Assembly: GCA_016206785.1 (NCBI GenBank)
Contig: JACQQV010000005.1
Coordinates: 1-59,924, forward strand
Origin: Candidatus Omnitrophota bacterium
GTDB taxonomy: Bacteria; Omnitrophota; Gorgyraeia; JACQQV01
DNA: 59,924 bases
Reading direction: 5' to 3'
Positions 9,265 through 59,924 of this stretch are shown piece after piece. Within the stretch, counting starts at the first letter, position 1. Every line of letters starts with the position of its first letter. The notes beneath the pieces are model-generated. The model was not told the DNA's origin. It saw only the letters and a list, made by a program, of their open reading frames with translations, and did not search any database. The translations under genes were made by a program, and so were the position numbers.

Positions 9265-10016
9265 GCTTGGGTCTCGCCTTCCCTCACCCCTGATTCGATT
9301 TTATCTTTGTTGCGTAGAATTTCGACTTCCCCAAAAACTGTTTTTTGCCTCACCAGAATCTCCTGGAGGCGAATGAGCTCCAGGATTGCGAGAAAGGTCG
9401 CCACGACCTCAAGGCGATTTTTGGCCTTCTCGAAGAGTTTTGAAAAATAAAGAACCGGTTCCGTGACCAAAAGATGAAAAATCTCGTGAACTTTTCCTTC
9501 CACTGTAAATTCGTCCTTCACAATTTCATAGAGCATCTTCTTCGGCATCCGCTGGAGAATCTTGGAGAAAGCGGAAAGGAGATCAAAGATGCCGGTTTCA
9601 AAATAGGTCTCCCCTTCTTCATCCACCTCGCTATATTTTTGAAAGGGCCGGGTAAAGATCTCTTTCTGGCTCGCCTCAAGGTGCCCTAAACGGTTGGCTG
9701 CTTCCTTGAATTTCTGGTATTCCAAAAGTCTCCGGACCAGTTCTGCGCGGGGATCCTCCTCTTCTTCCTCCTCAACAAGCTGCTCTTCCGGAGGAAGAAG
9801 CATCCGCGATTTGATCCGCATCAGTTCCGCCGCCATCACGAGAAACTCTCCGGCAATCTCCAGATCGAGAAGCTTCATGACTTCCAGATATTCCAGATAC
9901 TGTCCGGTGATTTTTGCGATCGGGATGTCCGTAATATCCACTTCTTCTTTTTTAATCAGATAAAGGAGAAGATCGAGCGGCCCTTCAAAGAGTTCCAACT
10001 TGACTTTATAAGTCAT
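9261..10016 (-). CDS. scpA: Segregation/condensation protein A
   Basis: FEGPLDLLLYLI, IKSRMLLP, TFLAILEL. Confidence 0.96.
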   Translation of the reverse strand: MTYKVKLELFEGPLDLLLYLIKKEEVDITDIPIAKITGQYLEYLEVMKLLDLEIAGEFLVMAAELMRIKSRMLLPPEEQLVEEEEEEDPRAELVRRLLEYQKFKEAANRLGHLEASQKEIFTRPFQKYSEVDEEGETYFETGIFDLLSAFSKILQRMPKKMLYEIVKDEFTVEGKVHEIFHLLVTEPVLYFSKLFEKAKNRLEVVATFLAILELIRLQEILVRQKTVFGEVEILRNKDKIESGVREGETQA

Positions 10017-11001
10017 GCTTCCACACCAGATGCCGCACTTCCTTCATCGTCTCTGAGGCGATAGCACGCGCCTTCTCTTTCCCCTCCTTGAGGAACTTGG
10101 CAATCTCCCCGCTCTCTTTGAGAAGGGCGGTGCGTTTCTTGCGAATCTCCTCGGTCGCCTCAATTAGTACTTCTGCGAGTTCTGTCTTATTCTCGACGCA
10201 GCCGCGCTTGGCACTTCTACATTCCTCCCAGACGATCGCGGCTCGCTCAGGCGCAAAAACTTTATAATAGTTACAAACATTGCACGTTTCGGGGTGCCCC
10301 GGATCGGTCATTTTGATCCGGAGGGGATCGGTAAACATCTTCTGCGTCGCTTTCCGGATCGCCTCCGGAGATGCTGAAAGAGCGATGGCGTTTTGATAGC
10401 TCTTCGACATCTTCCGCCCATCAATCCCAAGGAGTTTCGAACTTTCGGTTAACAGTTCTTTCGGTTCCGGAAAGGGACTCTCCTTGTAAAGAGATTTGAA
10501 GCGTCTCACGATTTCGCGCGCCAACTCCAGATGGGCCACCTGGTCCTCTCCCACCGGAACCACTTCAGCCTTGTAAAGGAGAATATCTGCAGCCTGAAGC
10601 ACCGGATAGCCCAAAAATCCATAAGTGGTAAGATCCCTTCCCTGAATTTCTCGCAGCTGTTCTTTATAGGTCGGAACGCGCTCCACCCACCCGAGGGGGG
10701 TGATGACCGAAAGGATCATGTAGAGCTCCAAATGTTCTGGGACATCGGACTGACGAAAGATGACGCTTCGGGTAGGATCGATGCCACAGGCGATCCAGTC
10801 GGCCACATTCTCCTTGACCGTCCGTTCAATCTCCGAAGGTGCTTCGTACTCACTCATGAACGCATGGTAGTCCGCGACCATGAAAAAGCAATCGTAGGTC
10901 TCTTGCAGTTTCTTCCAATTTTGAAGCGCCCCCACCCAGTGACCTAGGTGGAGTTCGCCGGTGGGCCGCATCCCGCTTAAAACGCGCTTTCTAGTAGACA
11001 A
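10006..11001 (-). CDS. trpS: Tryptophan--tRNA ligase
   Basis: SGMRPTGELHLGH, YPVLQAADIL, VPVGEDQ, KMSKS. Confidence 0.97.
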   Translation of the reverse strand: MSTRKRVLSGMRPTGELHLGHWVGALQNWKKLQETYDCFFMVADYHAFMSEYEAPSEIERTVKENVADWIACGIDPTRSVIFRQSDVPEHLELYMILSVITPLGWVERVPTYKEQLREIQGRDLTTYGFLGYPVLQAADILLYKAEVVPVGEDQVAHLELAREIVRRFKSLYKESPFPEPKELLTESSKLLGIDGRKMSKSYQNAIALSASPEAIRKATQKMFTDPLRIKMTDPGHPETCNVCNYYKVFAPERAAIVWEECRSAKRGCVENKTELAEVLIEATEEIRKKRTALLKESGEIAKFLKEGKEKARAIASETMKEVRHLVWKHDL

Positions 11002-11023
11002 ACAACACCCCCTTGTGAATTAA

Positions 11024-11144
11024 AAATAACCAAATACCAAATCACAATAACCAAATAAGCTCCAAACACCAATATCCAATAATCAAACCTGGAGTTTGGT
11101 CATTGGTGATTATTTGGTGTTTGGAATTTGGTTATTGATGATTG
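11024..11144. repeat. 7-bp-periodic imperfect palindrome (CAA/TTG type), copy 1
   Basis: CAA at 11031,38,45,52,63,70,77,84; TTG at 11096,103,114,121,128,135,142. Confidence 0.9.
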
Positions 11145-11151
11145 CCACTGA

Positions 11152-13206
11152 TTAGACTTCAAGTTTCCGAGCCACCTTCTCCAATTGATACAGTTCGATG
11201 AAGTCACCCACCTGGTAGTCTTTGAAATTCTCGATGGAGATGCCGCATTCCTGGCCCTCTGCGATCTCTTTCACATCATCTTTAAAGCGCTTCAGTGCCG
11301 CGAGTTTTCCTTCAAAGACGGTCTCTTTATTCCGGATGATGCGGACGACAGGAGTGCCCGCCCGAACCAGTTTCCCCTTGACGGCAAGACATCCTGCAAT
11401 ATTCCCAACTTTTGAAATTTTAAAGACCTGTTTAACCTCTGCACGGCCGAGGAAGGTCTCCTTGGTCGTTGGCTCCAACAACCCTTCCATGGCAAGTTTG
11501 ATGTCAGAGACGATTTCATAAATAATCGTGTACCGCTTGACCTCGACCCCTTCTTCCTTGGCGATCGCCTCGGCCCTTGGGAGCTCGCCCACATGGAAAC
11601 CGATGACGACGGCGTCCGAGGCGGCCGCAAGCATGATATCGGACTCATTGATGTCACCCATGCCACTATGGATAATGGTGAGTTTGACATCTTTAGAGTC
11701 GATCTTGGAAAGTTCTCCCTTAAGGGCTTCCAAGGATCCTTGAACATCGGCCTTCAAAACAAATTTGACCTCCTTCACCTTTCCTTCTTGAATGCGGGTG
11801 TGGAGATCTTCAAGGGTGATGTGACGGGCAGGGCCGACCCTCTCTTCCCGCCGTTTCTCCTCCTGGCGTACCGTTGTAATTTCTCTTGCCCTTCTCTCAT
11901 CTTGGACGACGTAGAAATGCTCCCCCGCCTTGGGAACACCGGAAAGACCTGAGATCTCCACCGGCTGGGAGGGGGGTGCTGTTTCAATCCGATGTCCTTT
12001 ATGATCGACCATCGCCCGCACTTTCCCATAATAGGGACCGCAGACGACGAAATCCCCTATCTTGAGCGAGCCGTTTTGGATGAGGACCGTTGCCACCGGT
12101 CCTTTCCCCTTCGAAAGTTCACTTTCAATGACCGTCCCTTTTGCGAACCTCGTCGGGTCTGCTTTCAGTTCAAGAAGTTCTGCTTCGAGCAATAACATTT
12201 CAAGAAGGTTCGGAATCCCCTCTTGGGTCTTCGCAGAAACAGGAACCATGATCGTCTTCCCTCCCCATTCCTCCGGCACCAGTCCCCGTTCGGTCAGTTG
12301 TTTTTTCACCCGATCCAGATTCGCACTGGGAAGATCACATTTATTGATCGCCACGACAATAGTCACTCCAGCGGCGCGGGCATGGTCAATCGCTTCTTCT
12401 GTCTGGGGCATCACCCCGTCGTCGGCAGCCACCACAAGTACCACCACGTCCGTCACGTTCGCCCCCCGAGCCCGCATGGCCGTGAAGGCCTCATGTCCCG
12501 GCGTATCCAAGAATGTCACATGACCCTTTCCCAAGTCCACCTCATAGGCACCGATATGTTGGGTAATCCCGCCTGCCTCTCCTGCCGCGACTTCACTTTT
12601 GCGGATCGCATCCAAGAGCGAAGTCTTCCCATGATCGACGTGACCCATGAGCGTCACGACCGGTGCCCGCGGTTTTAAATTTTTCGCATCTTTCGTTTCA
12701 TGCTCAAGAATGAGCGCTTCTTCCATCGTGGGAAGCTTCTCGAGCTGGAATCCGAATTCCTTTCCAAGTTCTTTGGCAACTGTTTCATCCAACGCTTGGT
12801 TGATGGTGACAAAGATCTTTCGCTGCATGAGCGATTTGATGAGTTCGCTCGGTTTAACCCCCACTTTGATAGAAAGATCCTTGACCGTGATTGGAAATTG
12901 GACCTGCACCGGTTGAAGGACTTTCGGTCTCTCAGGTTCCTTGACCTCTGGCACTTTCACGACGGTGGGGACGGGGGCTTTGGCGACGGGGGGAGGAGGC
13001 GACACTTTTTGAACCGGTGGAACAGTCGGCTTCACCGGCACCTTCGGCGCTTCCTTGACCTCTTTCTTTTTCAGAAGCTGGACCGCCTCGGGAGGAACGA
13101 CGCTCATGTGACTCTTGACCTCCACTTTCATCCGGTGCAATTTCTCAATGAGTTCTTTGCTGGAGAGTCCGAGTGTCTTTGCCAATTCATGGACGTGAAT
13201 GTTCAT
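11152..13206 (-). CDS. infB: Translation initiation factor IF-2
   Basis: MGHVDHGKTSLLD, EAGGITQHIGAY, DTPGHEAF. Confidence 0.98.
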   Translation of the reverse strand: MNIHVHELAKTLGLSSKELIEKLHRMKVEVKSHMSVVPPEAVQLLKKKEVKEAPKVPVKPTVPPVQKVSPPPPVAKAPVPTVVKVPEVKEPERPKVLQPVQVQFPITVKDLSIKVGVKPSELIKSLMQRKIFVTINQALDETVAKELGKEFGFQLEKLPTMEEALILEHETKDAKNLKPRAPVVTLMGHVDHGKTSLLDAIRKSEVAAGEAGGITQHIGAYEVDLGKGHVTFLDTPGHEAFTAMRARGANVTDVVVLVVAADDGVMPQTEEAIDHARAAGVTIVVAINKCDLPSANLDRVKKQLTERGLVPEEWGGKTIMVPVSAKTQEGIPNLLEMLLLEAELLELKADPTRFAKGTVIESELSKGKGPVATVLIQNGSLKIGDFVVCGPYYGKVRAMVDHKGHRIETAPPSQPVEISGLSGVPKAGEHFYVVQDERRAREITTVRQEEKRREERVGPARHITLEDLHTRIQEGKVKEVKFVLKADVQGSLEALKGELSKIDSKDVKLTIIHSGMGDINESDIMLAAASDAVVIGFHVGELPRAEAIAKEEGVEVKRYTIIYEIVSDIKLAMEGLLEPTTKETFLGRAEVKQVFKISKVGNIAGCLAVKGKLVRAGTPVVRIIRNKETVFEGKLAALKRFKDDVKEIAEGQECGISIENFKDYQVGDFIELYQLEKVARKLEV

Positions 13207-14468
13207 GAAGTCTCAGTCCCTTCTGTCTTTTCTTTTCCCGCCTTTGACTGCGCCTCTTCTTCCGCGGCGACCTCTTTCATCCGTTCACTCAAAATATCTC
13301 GCGGAGGTGTCGCTGCCTTTGGCACCCACCGCAACTTCTCGACCATCTTTTTCGCATTATTCAAAAGTTTTTGAGCGGTCTTTTCTCCAACCCCCTTGAC
13401 CTTCATGAGCGTCTCAGGAGTGGCCGAAGCGATGGAAGAAACAGTCGCAAACCCTGCCTCTGTGAGTGCGGCTTTCATTTTGGGGCCGACGCCGGAAAGC
13501 TCTTCAACCCCGACGTCCTTTTCCTTCGCCAGTTCAGACTTCGATTTAATGTCAATGTCCCAGCCGGTGAGCTTCGCAGCCAACCGCACATTTTGCCCTT
13601 TCTTTCCGATCGAAAGAGAAAGCTGGTCATCCTCAACGATCACGAGAGCCTTTCCGTGCTCCTTATCGATTTCCATGTCGTGCACCTTGGCCGGAGAAAG
13701 AGAGGCCCCGATGTACTCACGGACATCGTCACTGTATCGGACAATATCGATTTTCTCCCCGTGGAGTTCTTTGATAATCTCCTTGACGCGGGAACCGCGC
13801 ATCCCCACGCAAGCTCCTACACAATCGACCCTCTCGTCTTTGGAATAGACCGCGATTTTCGTCCGTTCTCCCGGCTCACGCGAAATCGACTTGATTTCCA
13901 AAATTCCCTCGTCAATTTCAGGAACCTCCAGTTCAAAAAGTCGACGGACGAGATCCGCATGGGTCCTCGAAAGAATGATCTGAGGCCCGCGAGCCGTTTT
14001 CTTGACCTCTAGCACGTAGGCCCTAATGCGATCCCCCTGGCGGTACTCGTCATTGGGAGGAAGTTCCCGCCGGGGAAGAAGCGCCTCGGTCTTTCCGAGG
14101 TCAACGATGACATTCCCATTCTCAAGACGGTGGACGCTGCCGCTTACAATACTCCCTACCCGATTCTGAAAATCGTTGAAGACCACATCCCGTTCCGCCT
14201 CACGGATTTTTTGAATAATGACCTGTTTGGCGGTCTGGGCCGCGATCCGGCTGAACTCTTGGGAGGCCACTTCGGTTTCTCCGGAAAGGATCTTGATCTC
14301 TCCGGTCTTTGGATTGATCTTCACGGTGATATCATCGGTTGTCTTTTTTCCAACCACCTTTCGGGCTGCAGAAATAAGGGCAGCCTCCACCGCTTGGATC
14401 AAGACTTCTCGCTTAATCCCCTTCTCCCGCTCAATATGATCTAAAACGGATAACAATTCTCCATTCAT
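13203..14468 (-). CDS. nusA: Transcription termination factor NusA
   Basis: RIAAQTAKQVIIQ, S1/KH domains (GACVGMRGSRV, IGKKGQNVRLA), C-terminal HhH. Confidence 0.97.
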   Translation of the reverse strand: MNGELLSVLDHIEREKGIKREVLIQAVEAALISAARKVVGKKTTDDITVKINPKTGEIKILSGETEVASQEFSRIAAQTAKQVIIQKIREAERDVVFNDFQNRVGSIVSGSVHRLENGNVIVDLGKTEALLPRRELPPNDEYRQGDRIRAYVLEVKKTARGPQIILSRTHADLVRRLFELEVPEIDEGILEIKSISREPGERTKIAVYSKDERVDCVGACVGMRGSRVKEIIKELHGEKIDIVRYSDDVREYIGASLSPAKVHDMEIDKEHGKALVIVEDDQLSLSIGKKGQNVRLAAKLTGWDIDIKSKSELAKEKDVGVEELSGVGPKMKAALTEAGFATVSSIASATPETLMKVKGVGEKTAQKLLNNAKKMVEKLRWVPKAATPPRDILSERMKEVAAEEEAQSKAGKEKTEGTETS

Positions 14469-14480
14469 GGTGAAGTCGCC

Positions 14481-16226
14481 TCAGAATTCAATGATTCTTT
14501 TTCCTCTTGAAAGGGCTTCAAGGGGGAGTTCAATCTTTCTCTGTGGCGCGATCCGTAAAATAATCTTTCCGTCCACCACCTCTTCCAACACCCCTTCAAA
14601 ATCGGTCTTCCCCAAAAAAGGTTTTTTAAGTACGAGGCGAACCGATTGGCCGATCACTCTCCGAAAATCACGTTCACTCACGAGAGGTCGATCCAAGCCC
14701 GGGGAACAGACTTCCAAAAGATAACTCTCTTCGATCAGGTTTCTTTCATCGAGCAGCTGACCGATCTCCTGATTCAAGAGGGCGCACTCATTCAAAGTGA
14801 TCCCCCCCGGCGTATCTACAAGGAGGCGGAGGACATGCTGCGGACCTTCTCGCCGGTAAGTCATCTCAATCAGTTCCGCCTGTTTCTCTTCAAGGATTCC
14901 GGAAATCGCTTCCCGAAGTGTCAGAAGGAGCGTTGCCGTAGTCCCTTGAGAGGCGATGCCGGTGTTACTTTCCGCATTGGAAGTCCGCAATAAAGCATCT
15001 AATTTTTCAAAGAGTTCTGTGCGAGAGACAGTGAACGTCTTCCCATCGTCCCGCCGCTTCATCTCAATTTTCCCCTCTTTGAGAAAGGTCTCTCCGAGGA
15101 CGACCTGAATCGGAATCCCGATCAGATCCCCGTCTTTGAATTTGATGCCGGGCCGTTCGGGTCGGTCATCCAAAAGGACCTCCCATCCCCGCCGGGTCGC
15201 TTCCTCATAGATTTCCACCGAAAGCCTCACGCAAGATTCCTCTGAAACGAGGGGAAGAATGAGGATTTGAAACGGTGCCACCGACCGCGGCCAAATGACT
15301 CCATTTTCGTCATGGTGCTGCTCAATGATGGAAGCGACGACGCGGTTCACCCCGATGCCGTAACAACCCATGAGCATCGGCCTGCGATTCCCCTCATGAT
15401 CGAGATAGGTGGCACCGAGAGGTTCCGTATATTTTGTCCCGAGCTGAAAGATATGGGCGATCTCGAGGCCCCGCTTCGTCACGCCCTTGTTGTGACATTT
15501 CGGACAGATGGCCGAAGTCTCCTCTCCCAGAGGCCAGGTGGACTGACAGGACTCGCAATATCCGACAACCTCCTCCCCGCTCTCGGTCGGAACCAGAAAT
15601 TCATGGGATCGACTCCCCCCCATGATGCCGGGATCTGCCTCCACGAGAAGTGTTGTGACTCCGCAGCGACTAAAAATTCTTCGGTACGCCCCTAACATCT
15701 TCTCGTAACTTTCTGAGAGGCTTTTCTCGTCCGCATCAAAGCTATAGGCATCCTTCATGATAAATTCACGACTCCGGACGACCCCGAATCGGGGTCGCGC
15801 CTCGTCCCGGAATTTTGTCTGAATCTGGTAAAGCATTAAAGGAAGCTGTCGGTAACTTTTTACCTCTTTCCTCACAAGGTCTGTAATGACCTCTTCGTGG
15901 GTTGGTCCGAGGACGTTCAGTTTTCCATGACGGTCTTTGAAAGAGATCATATCTTCTCCCAAGACCTCAAAACGGCCGGTCGCCTCCCAAAGCTCTGCCG
16001 GCTGAAGCGCTGGAAGAAGTAGTTCCGCCGCCCCCTCACGGTTCATTTCCTCCCGGATGATCGTCTCCACTTTCCGGAGGGCCCGAAGACCGAGCGGCAG
16101 ATAAGAATAGGTCCCTGAGGCGAGTTGACGGATGAGGCCCGAGCGGATCATGAGCCTGTGGCTGACCGCCTCCGTATCGGAAGGGTTTTCTTTCTGCGTC
16201 TGGATAAAACTATTGGACCACTTCAT
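14481..16226 (-). CDS. proS: Proline--tRNA ligase fused in frame to ribosome maturation factor RimP
   Basis: ProRS motifs LGPTHEE, QIQTKFRDE, REFIMKDAYSF, MGCYGIG. The C-terminal ~150 aa show RimP motifs (LRLLVD..GGITLNEC, YLLEVCSPGLDRPL...DF). Confidence 0.92.
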   Translation of the reverse strand: MKWSNSFIQTQKENPSDTEAVSHRLMIRSGLIRQLASGTYSYLPLGLRALRKVETIIREEMNREGAAELLLPALQPAELWEATGRFEVLGEDMISFKDRHGKLNVLGPTHEEVITDLVRKEVKSYRQLPLMLYQIQTKFRDEARPRFGVVRSREFIMKDAYSFDADEKSLSESYEKMLGAYRRIFSRCGVTTLLVEADPGIMGGSRSHEFLVPTESGEEVVGYCESCQSTWPLGEETSAICPKCHNKGVTKRGLEIAHIFQLGTKYTEPLGATYLDHEGNRRPMLMGCYGIGVNRVVASIIEQHHDENGVIWPRSVAPFQILILPLVSEESCVRLSVEIYEEATRRGWEVLLDDRPERPGIKFKDGDLIGIPIQVVLGETFLKEGKIEMKRRDDGKTFTVSRTELFEKLDALLRTSNAESNTGIASQGTTATLLLTLREAISGILEEKQAELIEMTYRREGPQHVLRLLVDTPGGITLNECALLNQEIGQLLDERNLIEESYLLEVCSPGLDRPLVSERDFRRVIGQSVRLVLKKPFLGKTDFEGVLEEVVDGKIILRIAPQRKIELPLEALSRGKRIIEF

Positions 16227-16230
16227 TGTG

Positions 16231-16289
16231 TCGTCGCTCGTCGTTCGTGAAGCGTGAAGCGAAATACGAGATACGCTTCACGAGGTACG
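16231..16289. repeat. 7-bp-periodic palindrome (CGT/ACG type), copy 1
   Basis: CG-centred units start at 16231,38,45,52,59; ACG at 16266,73,80,87; inverted pair TCGTGAAGCGT/ACGCTTCACGA. Confidence 0.85.
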
Positions 16290-17381
16290 TTCTATATTCA
16301 ACATCTCCTGCACGAGGGCTTCGACCATCTCACTTTCCTTGACGCGCCGGATCATTTGCCCCTTTTTAAAAATCATTCCCTGACCTTTTCCTGCGGCGAT
16401 GCCGATATCCGCATCCTTCGCCTCCCCGGGACCGTTCACTTCGCACCCCATGAGGGCGATCTTCACTCCAACGAGATCTGCTTGAGATTTTCCCAGCTCG
16501 CGCAAACGCTTCTCCGCCGCCTCCACGAGTTGAATGAGATCGATGTCCGCCCGGCCGCAGGAGGGACAGGCGATCAGTTCCGGACCAAAGTCCCGAAGTT
16601 CGAGGAACTGCAAAATGCGCTTCCCAACCTCCACTTCCTCAACCGGATCTCCCGTGAGGGAGACACGAAGGGTATCGCCGATCCCTTCGAGAAGAAGGGC
16701 ACCGATCCCGAGCGCCGATTTGATCGCCCCGTCGCGCGGGAGTCCCGCTTCTGTCACACCCAGATGAAAAGGATAATCGGAAACCTTTGCCATCCGACGG
16801 TAAGATTCAATCGTATCTTGAACATTTGAAAGTTTCATCGAAATCTTCAGTTCCGTAAAATGATGTCTTTCAAAAAAGCGAAGGTACTCCACTCCCCGAT
16901 GGATCATTTTTTGGATAAAGGCCTCTCTCGCCTCATGGCGAAGAGGCCCTTCTTTCGGATAGACCGCATCGACCGAACCGGCATTGACGCCTATCCGGAT
17001 AGCGACCTTGTGCGCCTTTGCCGCATCAATGATTTGTCGAATACGATCTTCCTCCTTGAGGTTTCCGGGGTTTAAACGGATCCCGTTTGCGCCTCCCTCA
17101 AGGGCCACAAGAGCCAGGCGGTGATCATAATGGATATCTGCGATTAAAGGGATTTTAATGGCCACCTTGATTTTCTTGATCGCCTCGGCCGAGGGCTTAT
17201 CGGGAACTGCAACCCGAACGATGTCACACCCCGCCTTCTCCAACTCACGAATCTGCCGGACCGTTCCCTCGACATCATGCGTATGGGTTTTGGTCATCGA
17301 TTGGATCGAGATCGGTGAGCCTCCTCCAATGGCGACAGGCCCCACATGGATCTGTCTCGTTTTTCTCCTTTCAATCGGCAT
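16278..17381 (-). CDS. ispG: HMBPP synthase IspG
   Basis: IQSMT, IADIHY, RLNPGN, HLGVTEAG, CPSCGR, MGCEVNGPGE. Confidence 0.97.
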   Translation of the reverse strand: MPIERRKTRQIHVGPVAIGGGSPISIQSMTKTHTHDVEGTVRQIRELEKAGCDIVRVAVPDKPSAEAIKKIKVAIKIPLIADIHYDHRLALVALEGGANGIRLNPGNLKEEDRIRQIIDAAKAHKVAIRIGVNAGSVDAVYPKEGPLRHEAREAFIQKMIHRGVEYLRFFERHHFTELKISMKLSNVQDTIESYRRMAKVSDYPFHLGVTEAGLPRDGAIKSALGIGALLLEGIGDTLRVSLTGDPVEEVEVGKRILQFLELRDFGPELIACPSCGRADIDLIQLVEAAEKRLRELGKSQADLVGVKIALMGCEVNGPGEAKDADIGIAAGKGQGMIFKKGQMIRRVKESEMVEALVQEMLNIERTS

Positions 17382-18472
17382 TAGAAACCTCCAAAAAAGT
17401 CGAACATTTTTTCAAATACCTTGAATCGTGAAAAGTCGTTGTAAAAAACAATGAGCATGAGTCCGATGAGAAGCGTCATCCCCACCTGCCGCGATAATTC
17501 TTGAATCCGCTCACTCACCGGTTTTCCCTTCAACCGTTCAAGCACCAAGAAAAACAGATGCCCGCCATCCAAGACCGGGATCGGGAGGACGTTAAAGATG
17601 GCCAGTGAGGCGCTCAAGACGCCGATCATCTGCAAGAGGTAGCGGATGCCGAGACGTGCCGCCTGTTCTGTGATGACAAAGATCCCGATCGGTCCCGTGA
17701 GCGATTCTTTCATCGCCAGATGTCCTGTGAGCATCCGGCCGATCGCCTTGAAGGTTAAAAACGTTAATTGACCCATCTGTTTTCCTGCCATGCCGATCGC
17801 CTGAGGAAGCGGATAATGCACAAGGATCACCTCATCGGAGGCAGAGATGCCGATGAGAGAAAATTTTTTCTTCTCTCCAAAAAGGTTTTTCTCTTCGACG
17901 CGCTTTGGGCGGAGCGTGAAAGTGAGTTCTTTGCGATCCCGCAAAACCGCCACCCGGATCACCCCCTCCTCTGGGGTTCCGTGAATGAGGGAGGTAACCT
18001 CTTCCCAATACTTTACCTTTTGATCGCTCACCGAAAGAACGCGGTCCCCCTCCTGGATCCCCGCTTCTTCGGCAGGATATCCCTCCATCACTTTCCCAAT
18101 CTTGGAGGTTATCTGCGGATTTCCAACTACAAAAACGACCGTAAAAACAAAAAAGGCCAAAGCATAATTGAGAAAAGGACCCGCAAAAACGACGGCAAAC
18201 CGCTCCCAGACCGAACGGGAAAGATATTCCCATCTCTCTCCCTTGAGGGGCTCGTCCCTTGTCTCCCCCGCCATCTTGACATAGCCGCCCAATGGAAAAT
18301 AGCAGAGTTGATACTCCGTCTCTTTTCCTTTGATGCTGAAAACCTTTGGCCCAAATCCGAGGGAGAATCGTTCCACCCGAATGCCGAGCCGCTTCGCTAC
18401 AAAGAAATGGCCCCACTCATGGACAAGGATGAGAATACTCAAAACAGCCGCAAAAAGGATGATGGAAAACAT
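17381..18472 (-). CDS. rseP: RIP metalloprotease RseP
   Basis: HEWGH, PLGGYVKM, PDZ domain, NVLPIPVLDGG. Confidence 0.96.
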   Translation of the reverse strand: MFSIILFAAVLSILILVHEWGHFFVAKRLGIRVERFSLGFGPKVFSIKGKETEYQLCYFPLGGYVKMAGETRDEPLKGERWEYLSRSVWERFAVVFAGPFLNYALAFFVFTVVFVVGNPQITSKIGKVMEGYPAEEAGIQEGDRVLSVSDQKVKYWEEVTSLIHGTPEEGVIRVAVLRDRKELTFTLRPKRVEEKNLFGEKKKFSLIGISASDEVILVHYPLPQAIGMAGKQMGQLTFLTFKAIGRMLTGHLAMKESLTGPIGIFVITEQAARLGIRYLLQMIGVLSASLAIFNVLPIPVLDGGHLFFLVLERLKGKPVSERIQELSRQVGMTLLIGLMLIVFYNDFSRFKVFEKMFDFFGGF

Positions 18473-19624
18473 CTAAATGGTTTTGAGCAGCCGGTGGGCT
18501 TCTTCTCTAGCCCATTGATCGTCCGCCAGAATTTCCTCCAACGTCGGTGCGTTCATGTTCTTATGTTTCGACAAAACCTTTTCAATCAGAGCCGGGATCT
18601 TGACGAAAGGAAGCCCTCCGGACAGATACGCCCGTACCGCCTCTTCATTGGCTGCATTCAAGGCGCAAGGAGTGCTTCCCCCTTCATGCGCCACTTCATA
18701 CGCAATACGAAGACACGGAAATTTGTCCACGTCAGGATTTTCAAAATGGAGTGCCCCCACCTCCTTGAAATTGAGACTTGGGACACTTCCCGGAAGACGG
18801 TCCGGATAACTTAAGGCGTATTGAATCGGCAACTTCATGTCTGTCACCGCCAGTTGTGCGAGAACAGATCCATCTACAAATTCCACCATCGAATGGATCA
18901 CCGCCTCGGGATGGATCAGCACTTCGATCTGATCGACGGCGAGATGGAAAAGGTGCCGCGCCTCGATGACTTCCAACCCCTTGTTCATGAGTGTGGCAGA
19001 ATCGACGGTGATTTTTCTCCCCATCTTCCACTTCGGATGCTCCAGCACTTCTTCTTGGGTCAAAGAACCGAAACTTTCCTTGGAACGCTTCCGTAAAGGT
19101 CCTCCCGATCCTGTGAGATAAATCCGCTGAAGAAGAGTCCGATCTTTCCCCTCCAAACACTGAAAAATCGCGTTGTGTTCACTGTCAACGGGGAGAAGAA
19201 AGGCCCCCGATTTCTTTGCTTCTTGAATCAGAAGATCCCCTGCCATGACCAACGACTCCTTATTCGCAATGGCGACCCGCTTCCCCTTCCGAATCGCCTC
19301 TAGCGTTGGAGGCAATGCTTCGGCCCCGCCGATCGCGATCAAGACCAAGTCGCTTTCCCTAAGTCCGCCCAGAAGTTCAATCTCTTTCTGTCCGACAAGG
19401 ATCTCCACTCGTGAATCGAGTTTTTCTTTCAGATGAGCGACTTGGGATTCATCGACAATGCCGACATAGTGGGGATGGAAGCGTTTCGCCTGCTCTGCCA
19501 AAAGCCCTGCATGCTCTCTGCACGCGAGCGCGACGACCTCAAACTCCTCCGGATGCGCTGAGATGACTTCCAGGGCATTGACACCGATGGAACCGGTTGA
19601 ACCGAGAATTGAAATCCGTTTCAT
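18473..19624 (-). CDS. dxr: DXP reductoisomerase
   Basis: GSTGSIG, ANKESLV, PVDSEH, MGRKITVDSATLMNKGLE. Confidence 0.98.
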   Translation of the reverse strand: MKRISILGSTGSIGVNALEVISAHPEEFEVVALACREHAGLLAEQAKRFHPHYVGIVDESQVAHLKEKLDSRVEILVGQKEIELLGGLRESDLVLIAIGGAEALPPTLEAIRKGKRVAIANKESLVMAGDLLIQEAKKSGAFLLPVDSEHNAIFQCLEGKDRTLLQRIYLTGSGGPLRKRSKESFGSLTQEEVLEHPKWKMGRKITVDSATLMNKGLEVIEARHLFHLAVDQIEVLIHPEAVIHSMVEFVDGSVLAQLAVTDMKLPIQYALSYPDRLPGSVPSLNFKEVGALHFENPDVDKFPCLRIAYEVAHEGGSTPCALNAANEEAVRAYLSGGLPFVKIPALIEKVLSKHKNMNAPTLEEILADDQWAREEAHRLLKTI

Positions 19625-20451
19625 CGAAAAAACCTCACCACCGCATAAAAAAGAGGTGTCGTGAAAAGGAGACTGTCGATCACATCCAGGATACCTCCCA
19701 TCCCCGGAATAAATTCTCGGGCATCCTTGGTTTGACAGTCCCGCTTGATCAAAGACTCTGCCAGATCGCCGAGAAGTCCCACGATCCCTAAGAGGAGCCC
19801 GAGTGAGGCAAACGCGACCCAGAGGAACGCCTCTCCGACCGCAAACGGGAGATGGCCTCTTAAGAGAAATTGAAACGCAAAAAGGCTCACCACGACACTC
19901 GTGAAAATTCCCGCGATGGACCCCTCAATGGTTTTATTGGGACTGACCCGAGGGGTCAGCGGATGTCTTCCCACTGCTGACCCGACAACGTACGCCCCGA
20001 TATCTCCCCCTTTCGTCACGAGCAATAGATACGCCACCCAATGGCTCGCTTCGATGCGAAGGGGAATGAGAAAACTGAAAAGAACCGACACATACACAAT
20101 TCCCGCAACGGTGACTGAAAGGCCGGCAAGAGAACCTTCATTCTTTCCCTTCGCAAACTGGTAGCCGAAAAAAACCAGAAAAAAGAGAACTGAAAAAAAG
20201 GGATACGCGGCCAACGTCTTTGGCGTCAGATCTTGCTGATAGGCCAAAAGGGGAACAAGCACCCCCATCGCCGTCGCAAAATATTTTCCGACCCGAAATC
20301 CCTTTTTTTCCGCCAGCGAATAAAATTCAAAGAGCCCGAGCCCCACCAGGGCCGTCACCACCAGACGAAAGACCCATAGCGGGAAAAGGTAAATGACCGC
20401 ATAAGAAAACGCGAGCCAGGCGACCGAACTCAAGAACCGCAGGATAAACAT
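19621..20451 (-). CDS. cdsA: Phosphatidate cytidylyltransferase
   Basis: Multi-TM protein; SPNKTIEG, GDLAESLIKR, IPGMGGILD. Confidence 0.95.
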   Translation of the reverse strand: MFILRFLSSVAWLAFSYAVIYLFPLWVFRLVVTALVGLGLFEFYSLAEKKGFRVGKYFATAMGVLVPLLAYQQDLTPKTLAAYPFFSVLFFLVFFGYQFAKGKNEGSLAGLSVTVAGIVYVSVLFSFLIPLRIEASHWVAYLLLVTKGGDIGAYVVGSAVGRHPLTPRVSPNKTIEGSIAGIFTSVVVSLFAFQFLLRGHLPFAVGEAFLWVAFASLGLLLGIVGLLGDLAESLIKRDCQTKDAREFIPGMGGILDVIDSLLFTTPLFYAVVRFFR

Positions 20452-20457
20452 GGGCGT

Positions 20458-21180
20458 TTATTTTCGGCTGATGGCCTCCGTGGCACCGAATCTCCGTTCC
20501 CGACTTTGAAACTCCTGAATCGCCTTTTCAAGATCGCTTCTGTCAAAATCGGGCCAGAGTTTCTTCGTGACCACGATCTCACTGTAAGAAATCTGCCAGA
20601 GGAGAAAATTGGAGATCCGCATTTCCCCACTCGTCCGAATCAGAAGGTCGGGATCCGGTATCCCGTCCGTATAGAGAAATTTTGAGAAGGATTCTTCATT
20701 AATGGCGTCGACCGACATCTTCGCTTCTTTCACATTTTGAACAATTTTTTTCGTCGCATCGATAATTTCGGAACGCCCTCCATAATTCAGGGCGAGGTTA
20801 AGCACGAGACCCGTATTTTGAGAGGTGGCCTGAATGGTCTTCCAGAGACGCTCCCGAACAAAATCGGGGAGTTCCTCCAGGCGACCGATCGCCATAAAGC
20901 GGATGTTGTGTTCATTCATCTCATCGATCTCTTTTTCGAGGAATTCGCTTAAGAGCCGCATGAGGAGGCCGATCTCCTTTTTAGGCCGTTTCCAGTTCTC
21001 GACGCTGAAGGCGTAGAGGGTTAAGACCGGAATCTTCATTGCGACGCACGCCTCCACCACCCGTCGGACAGACTTGATCCCCGCGCGGTGTCCCATCGTC
21101 CGGGGAAGTCCGCGATGTTTTGCCCATCGTCCATTGCCATCCATGATGATGGCGATATGTTTCGGTAAGTTATTCTCCAT
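20458..21180 (-). CDS. uppS: Undecaprenyl diphosphate synthase
   Basis: HIAIIMDGNGRWA, FSVENWKRP, RTSGEMRISNFLLWQ. Start reassigned to ATG 21180. Confidence 0.96.
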   Translation of the reverse strand: MENNLPKHIAIIMDGNGRWAKHRGLPRTMGHRAGIKSVRRVVEACVAMKIPVLTLYAFSVENWKRPKKEIGLLMRLLSEFLEKEIDEMNEHNIRFMAIGRLEELPDFVRERLWKTIQATSQNTGLVLNLALNYGGRSEIIDATKKIVQNVKEAKMSVDAINEESFSKFLYTDGIPDPDLLIRTSGEMRISNFLLWQISYSEIVVTKKLWPDFDRSDLEKAIQEFQSRERRFGATEAISRK

Positions 21181-21191
21181 CGCTTCACCAC

Positions 21192-21223
21192 AAAAACAAA
21201 GGGGGATCGCCTTTCGTCCCCCT
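21192..21223 (-). terminator. Probable terminator after the OmpA-family gene
   Basis: Minus strand GGGGGA...TCCCCC followed by TTTGTTTTT. Confidence 0.5.
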
Positions 21224-21302
21224 CGCTTGTCTAACCTGTCACAAGGTAAATGCCTCAACCGTTACATTGAATTGCCCAACGCCTGTACCAGAGAACCCTT
21301 CG

Positions 21303-21965
21303 TTATTTGACGGTGTCTTTGGAACCCCACGTATACGACTGCTTGGGTCTCTTTGTCTCCTTGGAAAGGATAATGATTTCGACCCTTCGGTTTTTCTGAC
21401 GTCCCTCTTTGGTATCATTGGAAGCAACCGGCCGGGTGTCTGCATAGCCGCTGGATGAAATGAGAGAAGAGGAAATTTCCTGCTTGGTCAGAAAATTCGC
21501 CACACTCCCTGCGCGGGCCTCGGAAAGTTCCTGATTCGATTTCCAACCGGAATACTTGATCGGCTGATTGTCCGTATGTCCCTCCACACTCACCTTCCGG
21601 CCTCCGCTCAACTCTTTGATCGCTCCCGAAATCTTCTTTAAGATCCCTTCCGCTTCTGGCCGGATCTTCGCCTTTCCTGAATCGAAGTAGACTTCCGCCA
21701 AAGAGGTGATGGTGATGCCGCGATCCCCAACTTCAAGGCCTATTTCTCCTTTTTCAATTTCACTTTTCAATCTTCGATCGAGGTCCCGTTTGATGGATGC
21801 CAGTTGGTCGAGTTCGCGGTTTAATCTTGAAACCTCGCTCTCCAGCTCACCGATTTTCCGGACATCCTTCGGGCTTCTTTTATGAAAAACAAAAGAACAT
21901 CCTGTCACAAAAAATGTTGTTGCAATGACCGTTACGCCAATGACAAGCCCCGACCTCCGGATCAT
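21303..21965 (-). CDS. OmpA/MotB-family lipoprotein with coiled coil
   Basis: Lipobox VTGC; FDSGKA, VEGHTD, NQELSEARA, NRRVEI. Confidence 0.88.
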   Translation of the reverse strand: MIRRSGLVIGVTVIATTFFVTGCSFVFHKRSPKDVRKIGELESEVSRLNRELDQLASIKRDLDRRLKSEIEKGEIGLEVGDRGITITSLAEVYFDSGKAKIRPEAEGILKKISGAIKELSGGRKVSVEGHTDNQPIKYSGWKSNQELSEARAGSVANFLTKQEISSSLISSSGYADTRPVASNDTKEGRQKNRRVEIIILSKETKRPKQSYTWGSKDTVK

Positions 21966-22008
21966 CCCAACCTCCTTTTTTTTATAACAAGTTATCTAAT
22001 ATTCACTC

Positions 22009-22037
22009 ATCTTAACATTTGAAGAAAAAGAAGTCAA
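22009..22037 (-). promoter_or_regulatory. Sigma70-type promoter for the OmpA-family gene
   Basis: TTGACT (22037-22032), 17-bp spacer, TGt-TAAGAT. Confidence 0.65.
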
Positions 22038-22115
22038 GCGGTTTTTCCTGTCAAGAGGGTAATAGAAAGAACCGTAATTCCTTGTGAAAAAATGAGTTGG
22101 ATGCGATTTCGCTTT

Positions 22116-24218: not shown

Positions 24219-24250
24219 GATGTTTCTTTCCTCCTTAAGTCGCTCAACTG

Positions 24251-27084
<2,834 letters not shown>

Positions 27085-27104
<20 letters not shown>

Positions 27105-28173: not shown

Positions 28174-28184
28174 CCTAAGTCGTC

Positions 28185-28778: not shown

Positions 28779-28822
28779 CTCTTCTTCCTCCATCTCTTCT
28801 TCGTCGTTGTTACGCCACGGCA

Positions 28823-31035: not shown

Positions 31036-31758
31036 TTACATTGTAAATTTCTCGCCAAGGTAAATTTTCCGCGCCTCCGAACTCCTTAACAACTCCTCCG
31101 CGGTTCCAGAAATCAGGATCCGACCGTCCGCCATGAGGTACGAACGGTCGGTGACGGAGAGGGTTTCCCGGACATTGTGGTCTGTGAGAAGTATCCCGAG
31201 GCCTTTTCGTTTCAGTTCATGAATAATCTGCTGGCATTCGGAGACGGCAATCGGATCGACCCCGCTGAAGGGCTCATCCAGAAGAAGGAAAAGAGGATTG
31301 GTGACAAGGGCACGGGTGATTTCAAGCCGCCTCCGTTCCCCGCCGGAAAGCATGTACGCCTTCTGCTTGGCAAGAGGCGTGATATGAAGTTCGGAAAGAA
31401 GTTCACCGAGTCGTCTCTCCCTTGTCTTGGGAGGGATGTGGAGGGTTTCAAGGACCGCCATGATATTCTCCGCTACGGTGAGCCTTTGAAAAATAGACGG
31501 TTCCTGCGAGAGGTATCCGATGCCACACCGGGCCCGACGGTACATCGGTAAAGAGGTGATGTCCTGTTGGTCAAAGATGATCTCTCCGCTGTTCGGCAAC
31601 ACAAGCCCCATGATCATATAAAAGGTGGTCGTTTTCCCTGCCCCGTTCGGTCCCAAAAGGCCGACAATCTCTCCGCGCTTGACCGTAATGGCCACATCCC
31701 TCACCACCGGCCGGCCGTTATACGATTTAACGAGGTGCCTGGTCTCTAATAAATGCAC
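31036..31758 (-). CDS. lptB: LPS export ABC ATPase
   Basis: GPNGAGKTT, LSGGERRRLEI, DEPFSGVDP, TDHNVRETL. Confidence 0.97.
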   Translation of the reverse strand: MHLLETRHLVKSYNGRPVVRDVAITVKRGEIVGLLGPNGAGKTTTFYMIMGLVLPNSGEIIFDQQDITSLPMYRRARCGIGYLSQEPSIFQRLTVAENIMAVLETLHIPPKTRERRLGELLSELHITPLAKQKAYMLSGGERRRLEITRALVTNPLFLLLDEPFSGVDPIAVSECQQIIHELKRKGLGILLTDHNVRETLSVTDRSYLMADGRILISGTAEELLRSSEARKIYLGEKFTM

Positions 31759-32620
31759 GTTTTTCTTTTTCCTCCGGCTTGATCAAAAGTTTTGGTTTGC
31801 CGACAAGGGTCACTTTCCCGAGCAGGGCATTATAGATCGCCTTGTCGCTATAGGAGACATTGTCTCCCCGTGTGATCCGGACATTCCCGGTTGCGATGAG
31901 TTCTTTCACATGATTCGTTTCCGGCTCAAAGGTGATATCCATCCGATCCGCCAGAAGTTCCCCTTCTTTGTCGATCGCTCTGACTTCGTCGTGGAAGACA
32001 GCGATATTGTGGGTATAATCGAGTTCCATCGGGCCTCTGGAGGTAATTTGAATGTCGGGCGCCATATGGACCTTGACCTCTTCCTTGAGGGCCACCTTTT
32101 TCAGATCGGGATAAGCCTCTGCGCCTTTTCCTTCCGTCATTAGAGTTCCTCTTTCGATCGTGAGCCTGTCTTCCGTCGAAAGTTTTTTCGAAGACCCGTT
32201 CCAATCGAGCGAATCCGTTTTGAGAGTGGCCCCATCGCTCGTCTGTGCAAACACATTCTCTTCAAGGTGCGCCTGTGCCGTGTGGCGGTCATAGGTGCCC
32301 CGTTCGGAGGTCACCGTCATCGTCGTCTTCCCTTCCATGGCAAGTTTCGGCTTTTCAAGTCTGGCAAGATCCCCTTCCAATGAAGCCTTCGTCCCCTGAA
32401 CCTCCCACTCCCGTTTTCCCTCCCTGGAGTATCCTGTAAATGAAAAGGTGTGGACCTCTTGTTCTGGAATGGTTTCCTCCGCAAAAGCCATCTGTCGAGT
32501 CGACAATGACAAATGACAAAGCACAAAATTCAAAATAAATCCAAAGCACAAATACCAAATGACAAAACCCCGTTTTGGAATTTGAATTTTGAATTTATTT
32601 TGTGCTTTGAATTTTGTCAT
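31727..32620 (-). CDS. lptC: LptC/LptA-like two-domain LPS transport protein
   Basis: N-terminal hydrophobic anchor; LptC-like LKTDSLDW and LptA-like ATGNVRI..SDKAIY; directly upstream of lptB. Confidence 0.8.
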   Translation of the reverse strand: MTKFKAQNKFKIQIPKRGFVIWYLCFGFILNFVLCHLSLSTRQMAFAEETIPEQEVHTFSFTGYSREGKREWEVQGTKASLEGDLARLEKPKLAMEGKTTMTVTSERGTYDRHTAQAHLEENVFAQTSDGATLKTDSLDWNGSSKKLSTEDRLTIERGTLMTEGKGAEAYPDLKKVALKEEVKVHMAPDIQITSRGPMELDYTHNIAVFHDEVRAIDKEGELLADRMDITFEPETNHVKELIATGNVRITRGDNVSYSDKAIYNALLGKVTLVGKPKLLIKPEEKEKRAFIRDQAPR

Positions 32621-32627
32621 TTGTCAT
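32503..32627. repeat. 7-bp-periodic imperfect palindrome (CAA/TTG type), copy 2, overlapping the lpxL end and lptC start
   Basis: CAA at 32510,17,24,31,42,49,56,63; TTG at 32575,82,89,600,607,614,621. Confidence 0.9.
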
Positions 32628-33524
32628 TACCTTCTCGGGCCTCGTCTTCCACCGACGATGCATCCAGACCCATTGATCTGGAAACCGACGGATATACGAT
32701 TCTGTGACGGACATCCACCGTTCTGTAAGGCGATTCACCGCCTCTTCTTTATCCGATCCATTGGCCGGCCAGAGGGGTTCTTCGACGACGAGCCGATGCC
32801 TTCCATTTCCTTCCCGGATCATGAAACAAGGAATAACAGGTGCCCCTGAGGCAATGGCAAAACGGGCAGGGGCAACCGGGGTGTACGCCTCCTTCCCAAA
32901 AAAAGGAACAAAAATACCGTCGACAGAGTCAATATCCTGATCGGCGAGAATCCCGAGGAATTGATTTTGGTGAAGAATCCGAAGCATCTGTTTCGGAGAC
33001 TCATCGCGGTAAAGGTACTTCAGCCCTTCGCTTTGACGGATTTCGCTCAAGAGACGGTCAAACCGTTCATCGTAGACCTTCCGGATGACAATGATCCCTT
33101 GATATCCCTTGAGGGATAAGGCTCGGGCGAGAAGCTCCCAGTTCCCAAAATGGGCGACCAAGAGGACGCCCCCTTTCCCGCTTTGAAGGACTGTATCCAG
33201 TTTCGAAAGTCCCTCGAAGGAGACCCATCGGTTTAGCGTCTTTTGAGTGATTTTTGGAAAATAGATAAGTTCCGCAACCGTTTTTCCTAAATTTTGGAAG
33301 ACCGATTCCCCGACTTTAAAAATTTCGTGTGGCGTTTTTTCCTTGCCAAAAGCAAGCGTCAGGTGCTGAACGGTCTTCCGTCTTTCTTTCCCAAGAACCC
33401 AGAAAGCACTCCTCCCCAGGAAAGCACCAAGCGCGATGCCCCACGAAGAGGGCAGTTTCCTCAAGAGAAAGCGGATAAAAAGGGTCAGGCGATAAAGGAT
33501 TTTCCTCCGAAGGCGATTTTTCAT
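32595..33524 (-). CDS. Lipid A late acyltransferase (LpxL/HtrB family)
   Basis: AHFGNWE, ADQD, FFG, PDQWVWMHRRWK. Confidence 0.92.
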   Translation of the reverse strand: MKNRLRRKILYRLTLFIRFLLRKLPSSWGIALGAFLGRSAFWVLGKERRKTVQHLTLAFGKEKTPHEIFKVGESVFQNLGKTVAELIYFPKITQKTLNRWVSFEGLSKLDTVLQSGKGGVLLVAHFGNWELLARALSLKGYQGIIVIRKVYDERFDRLLSEIRQSEGLKYLYRDESPKQMLRILHQNQFLGILADQDIDSVDGIFVPFFGKEAYTPVAPARFAIASGAPVIPCFMIREGNGRHRLVVEEPLWPANGSDKEEAVNRLTERWMSVTESYIRRFPDQWVWMHRRWKTRPEKVMTNDKIQSTK

Positions 33525-33547
33525 GAACAATTATCCCCAAACTTATT

Positions 33548-58448: not shown

Positions 58449-58453
58449 TTTTC

Positions 58454-58488
58454 CCTACCTTGTACTTTTTACTTTATACTTTGTACTA
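58454..58488. repeat. Five-unit 7-bp tandem array overlapping the aroC stop
   Basis: TAC at 58456,63,70,77,84. Confidence 0.75.
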
Positions 58489-59610
58489 AAATTCTCTAAC
58501 CTGTTTCAGGTATCCTTCATAGTTGCGTTTAATTTCGGTTATGGAATCACCGCCGAATTTTTCGCGGAAGCAGTCGGCGATTTCAAAGGCAACGACCGCT
58601 TCCCCGATCACCCCTGCCGCTGGCACCGTGCAGACATCGGACCGTTCAATCGTCGCCTTGACCGGCTGTTTCGTGAGAATATCCACGGAAGGAAGGGGAT
58701 TTAAGAGCGTTGAAATCGGCTTCATGTAGGCTCTCACAATAATCGGTTCCCCACTCGACATCCCTCCTTCGATCCCTCCAGAACGATTACTTCCCCGGTA
58801 AAATCCTTTTTTGGGATCGTGATAGATGGCATCGTGAACTTCGGAGCCCCGCTTCCGGGACCCTGCCACCCCATCCCCAATCTCCACCGCCTTCATCGCC
58901 TGAATCGAAAGGATCGCCCGAGCAAGCCGACCATCCAGTTTCCGATCATAATGAACGAAACTCCCAAGCCCTACAGGGATGCCGATGGCCATCACCTCAA
59001 AAACGCCGCCAAGGGTGTCTTTCCCCTCTTTCGCTTTCGTGATCTCTTCGATCATCCGTTTGCTCGCCTCTTTGTCCGCGCATCGCACCTCGGAGGCTTC
59101 CGCATTTTTCCGGATTTCCTCAAAAGAGAGCCTTTCGGTATTTGCTTCAACATTCCCTATGCGAAGGACGTGACTGATGAAGTCAATCCCAAATTCCTTC
59201 AAAAAAATTTTGCAAAGCGCACCGACCGCGACCCGCGCAGCGGTCTCCCGGGCGCTCGCCCGTTCTAACACATTCCGGATATCGGTGTGGGCATACTTCA
59301 GCGCCCCTGTCAAATCCGCATGCCCCGGCCGCGGCTGGGTCACTTTCGGAAGTTCATTGATTTTGAAATCCTTGTTCTGAATCATGAGCGCAATGGGGCT
59401 GCCCATCGTGAAACCGTCCTTTACGCCGGAAAGGATTTCCACTCGGTCCTGCTCGATCTGCATCCGCCCCCCACGGCCAAACCCCATCTGCCGACGGGAA
59501 AGCTCTGCATTGACGACCGCCCCATCCACTTTGAGCCCGGCCGGCATCCCTTCCACCGTCGCCACAAGACACTTCCCATGACTTTCCCCACTCGTCAGAT
59601 ACCGTAACAT
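58486..59610 (-). CDS. aroC: Chorismate synthase
   Basis: TSGESHG, PRPGHAD, ERASARETA, GGIEGGMS, MKPISTL. Confidence 0.98.
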   Translation of the reverse strand: MLRYLTSGESHGKCLVATVEGMPAGLKVDGAVVNAELSRRQMGFGRGGRMQIEQDRVEILSGVKDGFTMGSPIALMIQNKDFKINELPKVTQPRPGHADLTGALKYAHTDIRNVLERASARETAARVAVGALCKIFLKEFGIDFISHVLRIGNVEANTERLSFEEIRKNAEASEVRCADKEASKRMIEEITKAKEGKDTLGGVFEVMAIGIPVGLGSFVHYDRKLDGRLARAILSIQAMKAVEIGDGVAGSRKRGSEVHDAIYHDPKKGFYRGSNRSGGIEGGMSSGEPIIVRAYMKPISTLLNPLPSVDILTKQPVKATIERSDVCTVPAAGVIGEAVVAFEIADCFREKFGGDSITEIKRNYEGYLKQVREF

Positions 59611-59628: not shown

Positions 59629-59757
59629 AAAGTTCCAATAACCAAATTACAAACACCAAACAAATTCCAAGTTTTCAATAACCAAACCCATGTTTGATTA
59701 TTGGAATTTGGTTCATTGGTGATTGTTTGGTTATTGAGATTTGGTGATTGGTGATTT
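59629..59757. repeat. 7-bp-periodic imperfect palindrome (CAA/TTG type), copy 3
   Basis: CAA at 59636,43,50,57,68,76,83; TTG at 59694,701,708,716,727,734,741,748. Confidence 0.9.
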
Positions 59758-59766: not shown

Positions 59767-59924
59767 CTATCGTATAAAGCCCAGATAGGCTAAAATGCGG
59801 TCTCCCCAGAAAAGGGCCACGATACTTCCCAAAGAAAGGAAAGGACCGTAAGGAATGACTTCGGCTCCTCTCCTGATTTTAAGGATAATCCCGACCACCG
59901 ATCCGAAAAAAGGAGCGATGAAGA
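59767..59924 (-). CDS. pilD: Prepilin peptidase, C-terminal fragment (5' part outside the window)
   Basis: Hand translation: FIAPFFGSVVGII...VIPYGPFLSLG...FIR*. Confidence 0.82.
   Translation of the reverse strand, partial: FIAPFFGSVVGIILKIRRGAEVIPYGPFLSLGSIVALFWGDRILAYLGFIR

Follow-up and report, generated by a model that had tools for sequence, protein, structure and literature searches.

Heptamer-armed hairpins in housekeeping operons of an Omnitrophota bacterium are ORF-less members of an intervening-sequence-like insertion element

Intervening sequences (IVSs) of 23S rRNA, of which ORF-less forms exist, heptamer repeat arrays such as the cyanobacterial STRR, and the imperfect palindromes of 100–150 bp called Correia/NEMIS in Neisseria and ERIC in enterobacteria are described systems with which the elements reported here can be compared. 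These palindromes reside in operon spacers and are co-transcribed, Correia being cut by RNase III, and we know of no four-helix-bundle partner gene for them. A distant four-helix-bundle protein of the same fold as the IVS-encoded one is Avd, the accessory protein of diversity-generating retroelements, which forms pentamers and binds nucleic acid. In the Coxiella 23S IVS, as described in the available part of the source, tandem heptamers lie just upstream of the S23p ORF, and RNase III cuts in the stem of the terminal inverted repeats, excision having been shown in vitro (PMC4990558). Proteins of this family (PF05635) are also reported from rRNA insertions of CPR bacteria (10.1101/2024.02.27.582315) and from the vicinity of cas genes (PMC3936711), with heptamers not mentioned in the accessible portions of either paper. 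According to the accessible text of a global survey, no short repeat is more abundant in the intergenic DNA of prokaryotes than tandem heptamers, and there is "no clear clue" to what they do (10.1101/309039). The partial texts at hand present inverted GGGAATC pairs in Xanthomonas, with 70 pairs in X. campestris (PMC4692102), paired heptanucleotide sites in Geobacter (PMC2700814), TAACTGA heptamers in Beggiatoaceae (PMC4679880), and arrays in Beggiatoaceae and cyanobacteria alike (PMC4679880; 10.1101/2022.06.06.494920). In those parts the function of all these arrays is left open (PMC4692102, PMC2700814, PMC4679880, 10.1101/2022.06.06.494920), and the Xanthomonas, Geobacter and Beggiatoaceae papers mention no tie to PF05635 or to intervening sequences. 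Our literature search found no paper linking heptamer arrays to PF05635, though supplements and database family comments may record such a link.

The stretch analysed here (the window, 59,924 nucleotides) is contig C16 of a 1.60-Mb Candidatus Omnitrophota assembly (G000; 50 contigs, 50.7% G+C, 94.95% complete), whose TrpS shares 79% identity with its counterpart in a Candidatus Omnitrophota MAG, the next-best matches being mostly labelled Omnitrophota or Planctomycetales. An initial annotation had reported three dispersed palindromic elements at gene junctions of the window. All three were recovered at the same positions (Table 1), and each is flanked by co-directional protein-coding genes, the six flanking genes all being on the minus strand. 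Element 1 takes up the spacer that separates the stop codon of IF-2 from the start codon of TrpS. Element 2 supplies the stop codon of the LpxL-like gene, the frame of which enters the element by about 12 codons (window 32595–32640); in relatives, the LpxL-like protein ends soon after a conserved RRWKT motif. The start position of the lptC-like gene is approximate, its longest ORF reaching spuriously into element 2. The truncated gene upstream of element 3, presumably that of prepilin peptidase, gave no NCBIfam match for its 51-aa fragment, and its homologue sits upstream of aroC in 27 of 28 loci of the class.

Table 1. Positions of the three elements and of the genes next to them in the window
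Feature	Position	Subfamily	Arms or placement	Remark
Element 1	11024..11144	A	CAA arm ~11031-11086, TTG arm ~11100-11144	without ORF
Element 2	32503..32627	B	CAA arm ~32504-32565, TTG arm ~32575-32623	between LpxL-like gene and lptC
Element 3	59629..59757	A	CAA arm ~59636-59689, TTG arm ~59694-59750	between 51-aa C-terminal fragment and aroC
infB (IF-2)	11152..13206		upstream of element 1 on the sense strand	TIGR00487, 782.5 bits
trpS	10006..11001		downstream of element 1	TIGR00233, 296.9 bits (cut-off 176.75)
LpxL-family-like lipid A acyltransferase	32595..33530		upstream of element 2	NF006270, 166 bits, under cut-off 248
lptC-like	31727..32461		downstream of element 2	TIGR04409, 72.4 bits (cut-off 38)
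aroC (chorismate synthase)	58486..59610		downstream of element 3	TIGR00033, 398.7 bits
51-aa C-terminal fragment	59767..59922		upstream of element 3	ORF, truncated by contig end

Each element is composed of a 5′ arm of CAA-centred units, a loop of 4–17 nt and a 3′ arm of TTG-centred units. The layout of an arm is four heptamer units, an 11-nt step and four further units, about eight degenerate heptamers per arm. The core steps are 7,7,7,11,7,7,7 on the left and 7,11,7,7,7,7 on the right of element 1, 6,7,7,7,11,7,7,7 and 7,7,11,7,7,7 in element 2, and 12,7,7,7,4,7,8,7 and 7,7,8,7,4,7,7,7 in element 3, so that the mirror symmetry of the arms is good and yet inexact. Thus, of the conserved 7-7-7-11 geometry with mirrored arms put forward in the initial annotation, the phase is present at all three sites, whereas the mirror is approximate and the 11-nt step is split as 7+4 in element 3, as it is in some other copies. 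The long imperfect hairpin that it had considered possible is borne out by the predicted RNA folds of elements 1–3, which beat 200 of 200 dinucleotide-preserving shuffles on both strands (z −5.0 to −7.1). In a search of the whole window against Rfam, the SSU rRNA (1–635) alone reached threshold, and ten element copies gave sub-threshold matches only, to eukaryotic miRNA hairpin models.

The periodicity and the inverted symmetry extend to the whole genome. A pattern that required three CAA in phase and, no more than 80 bp further on, three TTG in phase detected 26 CAA>TTG loci and no TTG>CAA locus. By sequence, 14 of them belong to subfamily A (CCAA cores, as in elements 1 and 3), nine to subfamily B (ACAA/TCAA cores, as in element 2) and three to a GC-rich CAACAAG type, and the mean pairwise identity among the 14 A copies is 74%. 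Four phased CAA gave 82 matches against seven for the reversed control pattern, and 28-nt windows with at least 68% self-identity numbered 61 at lag 7 versus 1, 4, 2, 8, 2 and 2 at lags 5, 6, 8, 9, 10 and 11, respectively. Chance or low complexity, considered as an origin of the elements, was ruled out by the fold z-scores, the 26:0 orientation, the lag-7 excess and the 82 versus 7 phased-CAA matches. Moreover, at least six further heptamer families exist in the genome, many of them likewise as inverted pairs, including GGTTTAC, AAGACCA/GGTCTTT, CGTCGTT, an AT-rich AAAAGGC/AATTCAA type and GTACAAA, which means that the initial annotation had caught part of a wider phenomenon. In the window itself there are three more heptamer arrays that it did not list, namely a CGTCGTT/GCGTGAA-type hairpin (16227–16290), an AAAAAGT-type array (44024–44070) and a GTACTTT-type array just upstream of the end of a shikimate-kinase-like gene (58452–58491). 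AT-rich islands (below 33% G+C in 100-nt windows) distinct from the CAA/TTG elements are located at 710–860, 21963–22093, 33514–33656 and 49413–49578.

The copy numbers are lower bounds, since repeats fragment the assembly. Contigs from four DNA runs of one groundwater study match the window exactly where they cover 10001–30000 and break inside element 1, none of them spanning the element or displaying an unoccupied site. Heptamer elements are also seen near contig ends, at C9:6109–6221 of 6423, C10:135–208, C34:49–72, C31:13535–13558 of 14063, C49:37370–37393 of 38591 and window 59629–59757 of 59924.

The initial annotation had mentioned that similar heptamer arrays flank four-helix-bundle (TIGR02436-like) genes in other genomes and had added that none is present here. 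The latter is true of the window, but the genome does possess one such gene, on another contig and inside the same arms. It is the one PF05635 match in the genome (C7:138–434; 71.8 bits, cut-off 33.8), within an ORF of 122 aa (G000:C7:93–461) that also matches TIGR02436, "four helix bundle protein" (90.6 bits, cut-off 24), and PDB entry 2RLD (E = 3e-13), its closest solved relative, which was deposited with five chains. The RxxxSxxxNxxE motif, described as conserved in PF05635/TIGR02436 proteins in the accessible part of the source (PMC3936711), is present as R-ASG-S-VGA-N-YR-E. This gene is enclosed exactly by two A-type arms, one of CAA and one of TTG, with steps of 7,7,7,11,7,8,7,4 and 7,7,7,11,7,7,7, and the hairpins of 120 bp therefore correspond to the same two arms minus the gene. 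The elements thus share with an IVS the long stem of terminal inverted repeats that may or may not enclose an S23p ORF. Terminal inverted repeats (termini GAAA(T/A)..C ... G..ATTTC) and multiple dispersed copies (14 A, nine B) are also features of a MITE, for which a transposase-encoding parent is expected, whereas the sole longer element with the same ends encodes the four-helix-bundle protein; by eye, no direct repeat is evident as a target-site duplication in the element flanks or against the empty G125 site.

This association proved to be correct and general. Among 243 relatives of the partner protein, obtained with each species represented by a single genome, the best 80 loci, 50–70% identical and spanning Nitrospirota, Omnitrophota, Thermodesulfobacteriota, Planctomycetes, Patescibacteria and others, were scored, and 62 of them have at least four phased CAA upstream and at least four phased TTG downstream, against 0 of 80 for the swapped control. 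The 11-nt step recurs among the arms inspected. Against the A consensus of this genome, the foreign arms scored a median of 24–25, own copies 42–44 and shuffles 10. A PF05635 match was obtained for 80 of the 121 Omnitrophota genomes sampled, and the 30 best-scoring Omnitrophota loci of other clades (at most 43% identical to the partner protein where alignable) have CAA/TTG arms in no case. Strong lag-7 arrays nevertheless lie on both sides at 23 of these 30 loci (null, 6 of 500 windows), each locus with its own heptamer, the downstream one being the reverse complement of the upstream one. The four-helix-bundle gene of the same-family genome G125 (L273, G125:C8:8817–9056) has GGTGTTA/TAACACC arms and adjoins a putative tRNA gene. 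These counts indicate that the heptamer type follows the protein clade, which is compatible with either co-inheritance or specific recognition.

The same match between heptamer and clade (62 of 80 versus 0 of 30) speaks for a different explanation, according to which the arms are DNA-level binding arrays for an oligomeric protein, either a pentamer of the four-helix-bundle protein or a host factor, and the hairpin is a by-product of inverted symmetry, as in subterminal repeats at transposon ends or iterons. The five chains of 2RLD are in line with it, and in the accessible text the paired arrays of Geobacter are proposed as "global regulator binding sites" (PMC2700814). We nevertheless regard this explanation, the main rival, as rather unlikely, considering that a purely DNA-level role does not predict the orientation of the unit: of 97 loci at which a simple ORF caller identified the neighbour on either side, 80 have the gene on the same strand as the two neighbours and one has it antisense to them, with 10 and six loci in which it is co-oriented with a single neighbour (background same-strand adjacency, 60 of 79). 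This 80:1 ratio argues that the unit depends on host transcription or must not oppose it. Furthermore, most hairpin families here are without a cognate gene in the genome: four-helix-bundle genes cognate to subfamily B, or to any of the at least six other families of heptamer hairpins, are absent, and the protein cannot therefore be needed to maintain them. No gene-bearing B-type unit was found in the same family, the four-helix-bundle genes of G148 and G125 carrying other heptamers. A 15-nt B-type word occurs in 120 stretches of the genome collection, mostly as plain tandem arrays in Nostoc and others, and none of its first 80 loci has a four-helix-bundle-like ORF, in what is a weak test (tblastn, 30-odd queries). 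In a Heliobacteriaceae MAG (L275:3190–3650), ATGACAA arrays bracket a GC-rich, highly self-complementary segment of about 370 nt, in which no four-helix-bundle-like ORF was found and which may represent another kind of cargo enclosed by such arms.

At the orthologous junctions, two of the three sites are occupied in this genome alone among the relatives examined, where the genes mostly abut, and occupancy of the third is common to one same-family genome (G148). The synteny of infB and trpS is kept at 32 of 80 TrpS loci, and CAA/TTG arms are found at none of these 32 junctions; the HSP-to-HSP gap is at most 30 bp in 22 of the syntenic relatives and exceeds 90 bp in nine, several of which contain hairpins of other heptamers. 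Upstream of aroC, the spacer is at most 60 bp at 17 of 27 class loci, and the same-family genome G125 (AroC 83% identical) has an empty junction of 32 bp versus 156 bp here. In G065 (L210, G065:C40), the exact junction of element 3 carries a four-helix-bundle gene that has heptamer arms of its own, G142 (L202, G142:C2) probably carries such a gene at the aroC junction as well (tblastn E = 2e-8), and several further class members have gene-less heptamer hairpins of other types there; this operon spacer is struck repeatedly. At the junction of the LpxL-like gene with lptC, the spacer is close to zero in many members of the class, G148 carries a B-type hairpin in the corresponding position and G125 contains AAGAC/GTCTT arrays. 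G148 has 28 phased-CAA matches, mostly of B type (control 1), and G125 has two (control 5); compared with the 82 in G000, these numbers indicate that the expansion of subfamily A is confined to this lineage. The proposal of a non-autonomous mobile element in the initial annotation is upheld by the 14 A copies with 74% identity, the empty orthologous junctions and the lineage-specific copy number.

The location in operon spacers, and the finding that the same junctions hold different heptamer hairpins in different relatives, could also be explained if the elements were host regulatory hairpins (terminators, attenuators or mRNA stabilisers) born in place by replication slippage and never mobile. 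Tandem heptamers are prone to slippage, which would favour such an origin, and 21 of 22 strong hairpins in the genome lie between co-directional genes, a proportion that is, however, close to the background of 81% co-directional pairs. A complex shared geometry together with 74% identity at 14 unlinked sites cannot arise independently, and the junctions are empty in most relatives. In addition, neither terminator-like nor promoter-like sites were found in 10800–11400 around element 1, and the AT-rich stems exceed 50 bp in length, unlike the short GC-rich stem and T-run of an intrinsic terminator. An origin in place is thus quite improbable in our judgement. The hairpins form a genuine family that is not random and are non-autonomous members, without an ORF, of an IVS-like, heptamer-armed insertion element; their copies have landed in the small gaps that separate housekeeping genes transcribed together.

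REP/REPIN-like elements mobilised in trans were considered as well, since REP-associated tyrosine transposases act on hairpin DNA and the genome has a single gene of this kind (Y1_Tnp, G000:C5:55095–55661; PF01797, 67.4 bits; NF047646, 73.3 bits, just under the cut-off of 80). On either side of that gene lie GGGACTWAGTCCC palindromes of its own, unrelated to the heptamer elements and present in 34 copies in the genome, rather than heptamer arrays, and across phyla the heptamer arms accompany the four-helix-bundle gene instead, which leaves this explanation hardly any probability. The RAYT-like gene with its GGGACTWAGTCCC palindromes (G000:C5:54940–55720, outside the window) is a second, unrelated repeat system.

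How the ORF-less copies are tolerated in operons can be approached through the analogy with rRNA intervening sequences, which share the protein family and have a stem cut by RNase III; on this analogy the transcribed arms would be an RNase III substrate, and a gene for RNase III is present in the genome. We lean towards a model in which the element is promoterless and would be transcribed by read-through from the host operon. Its RNA arms would pair via the conserved cores (CCAAA with UUUGG) into a long, beaded stem of short helices broken every 7 nt, which may be cut by the host RNase III as the stems of rRNA intervening sequences are. The cut would remove or neutralise the insertion and leave the flanking cistrons functional, and the element's own protein may also recognise the conserved heptamer cores. 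To our knowledge the four-helix-bundle protein has no catalytic domain, which counts against the model, as does the absence of a cognate gene for many of the heptamer-hairpin families of the genome.

The pairing data bear on the model as well. In the 22 strong hairpins, only about 78% of the aligned positions are Watson–Crick pairs, and the RNAalifold consensus retains as pairs the invariant cores only, that is, short helices every 7 nt with small internal loops between them. Covariation, which the initial annotation had named as a check on the hairpins, is nearly absent: compensatory changes were found in one of 30 pairs in A and one of 39 in B, the sole such pair in each family being the T/C of the 11-nt step with its A/G partner, and this counts against an RNA stem. 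The complementarity of an arm to its own partner is no higher than to the arms of other copies (permutation p = 0.65 for A, one of whose arms was wrongly extracted as 7 nt, and 0.998 for B). In a weak test of the strand, sense-strand mismatches of the 22 strong hairpins were G.T in 55 cases versus A.C in 39 (p = 0.06). Selection therefore appears to act on the cores and the phase, and not visibly on pairing at the variable positions. Conservation limited to the cores and the phase (7 nt with one 11-nt step), with variable positions that are non-complementary within a copy, would also be expected of the DNA binding arrays discussed above.

Compared with the described systems, the element resembles the S23p/PF05635 IVSs of 23S rRNA in Coxiella and Leptospira in the long stem of terminal inverted repeats with the same protein family in the loop, in the tandem heptamers next to the ORF start and, on the model above, in expression supplied by the host transcript. 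It differs from them in its target, the mRNA spacers of protein-coding operons rather than an rRNA helix, all three window elements lying between protein-coding genes, and in its arms of about 56 nt with eight phased units and a fixed 11-nt step, the three window copies being without an ORF. With the heptamer arrays of cyanobacteria (STRR), Xanthomonas, Geobacter and Beggiatoaceae, as far as these are described in the accessible texts, it shares the period of 7, the intergenic location and the frequent arrangement as convergent or inverted pairs, whereas the units there are near-perfect repeats and here a core of 4–5 nt is kept. The size class of the imperfect palindrome and the operon-spacer location are those of Correia/NEMIS and ERIC, which have transposase-type terminal repeats and target duplications and are without an internal 7-nt periodicity. 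Unlike in Avd systems, there are no template or variable repeats here, and this 95%-complete assembly yielded no RVT_1 reverse transcriptase.

The full form of the hairpins carries a small four-helix-bundle gene between the same arms and is an insertion element that has been little studied. It is possible, and we offer it tentatively, that inverted heptamer arrays and the PF05635 gene constitute one phylum-spanning selfish class of the intervening-sequence type, which would ride rRNA and operon-mRNA transcripts, be neutralised by RNase III, use clade-specific heptamers and leave ORF-less descendants that would explain much of the prokaryotic excess of 7-nt repeats. PF05635 is a widespread family with solved structures and no known role, and the present locus ties it to tandem heptamers. 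The link between arms of 7-base repeats and a four-helix-bundle gene may help to explain why such repeats are so common in bacterial genomes, and essential operons such as infB-trpS in a genome of 1.6 Mb tolerate repeated insertion at the junctions of their cistrons.
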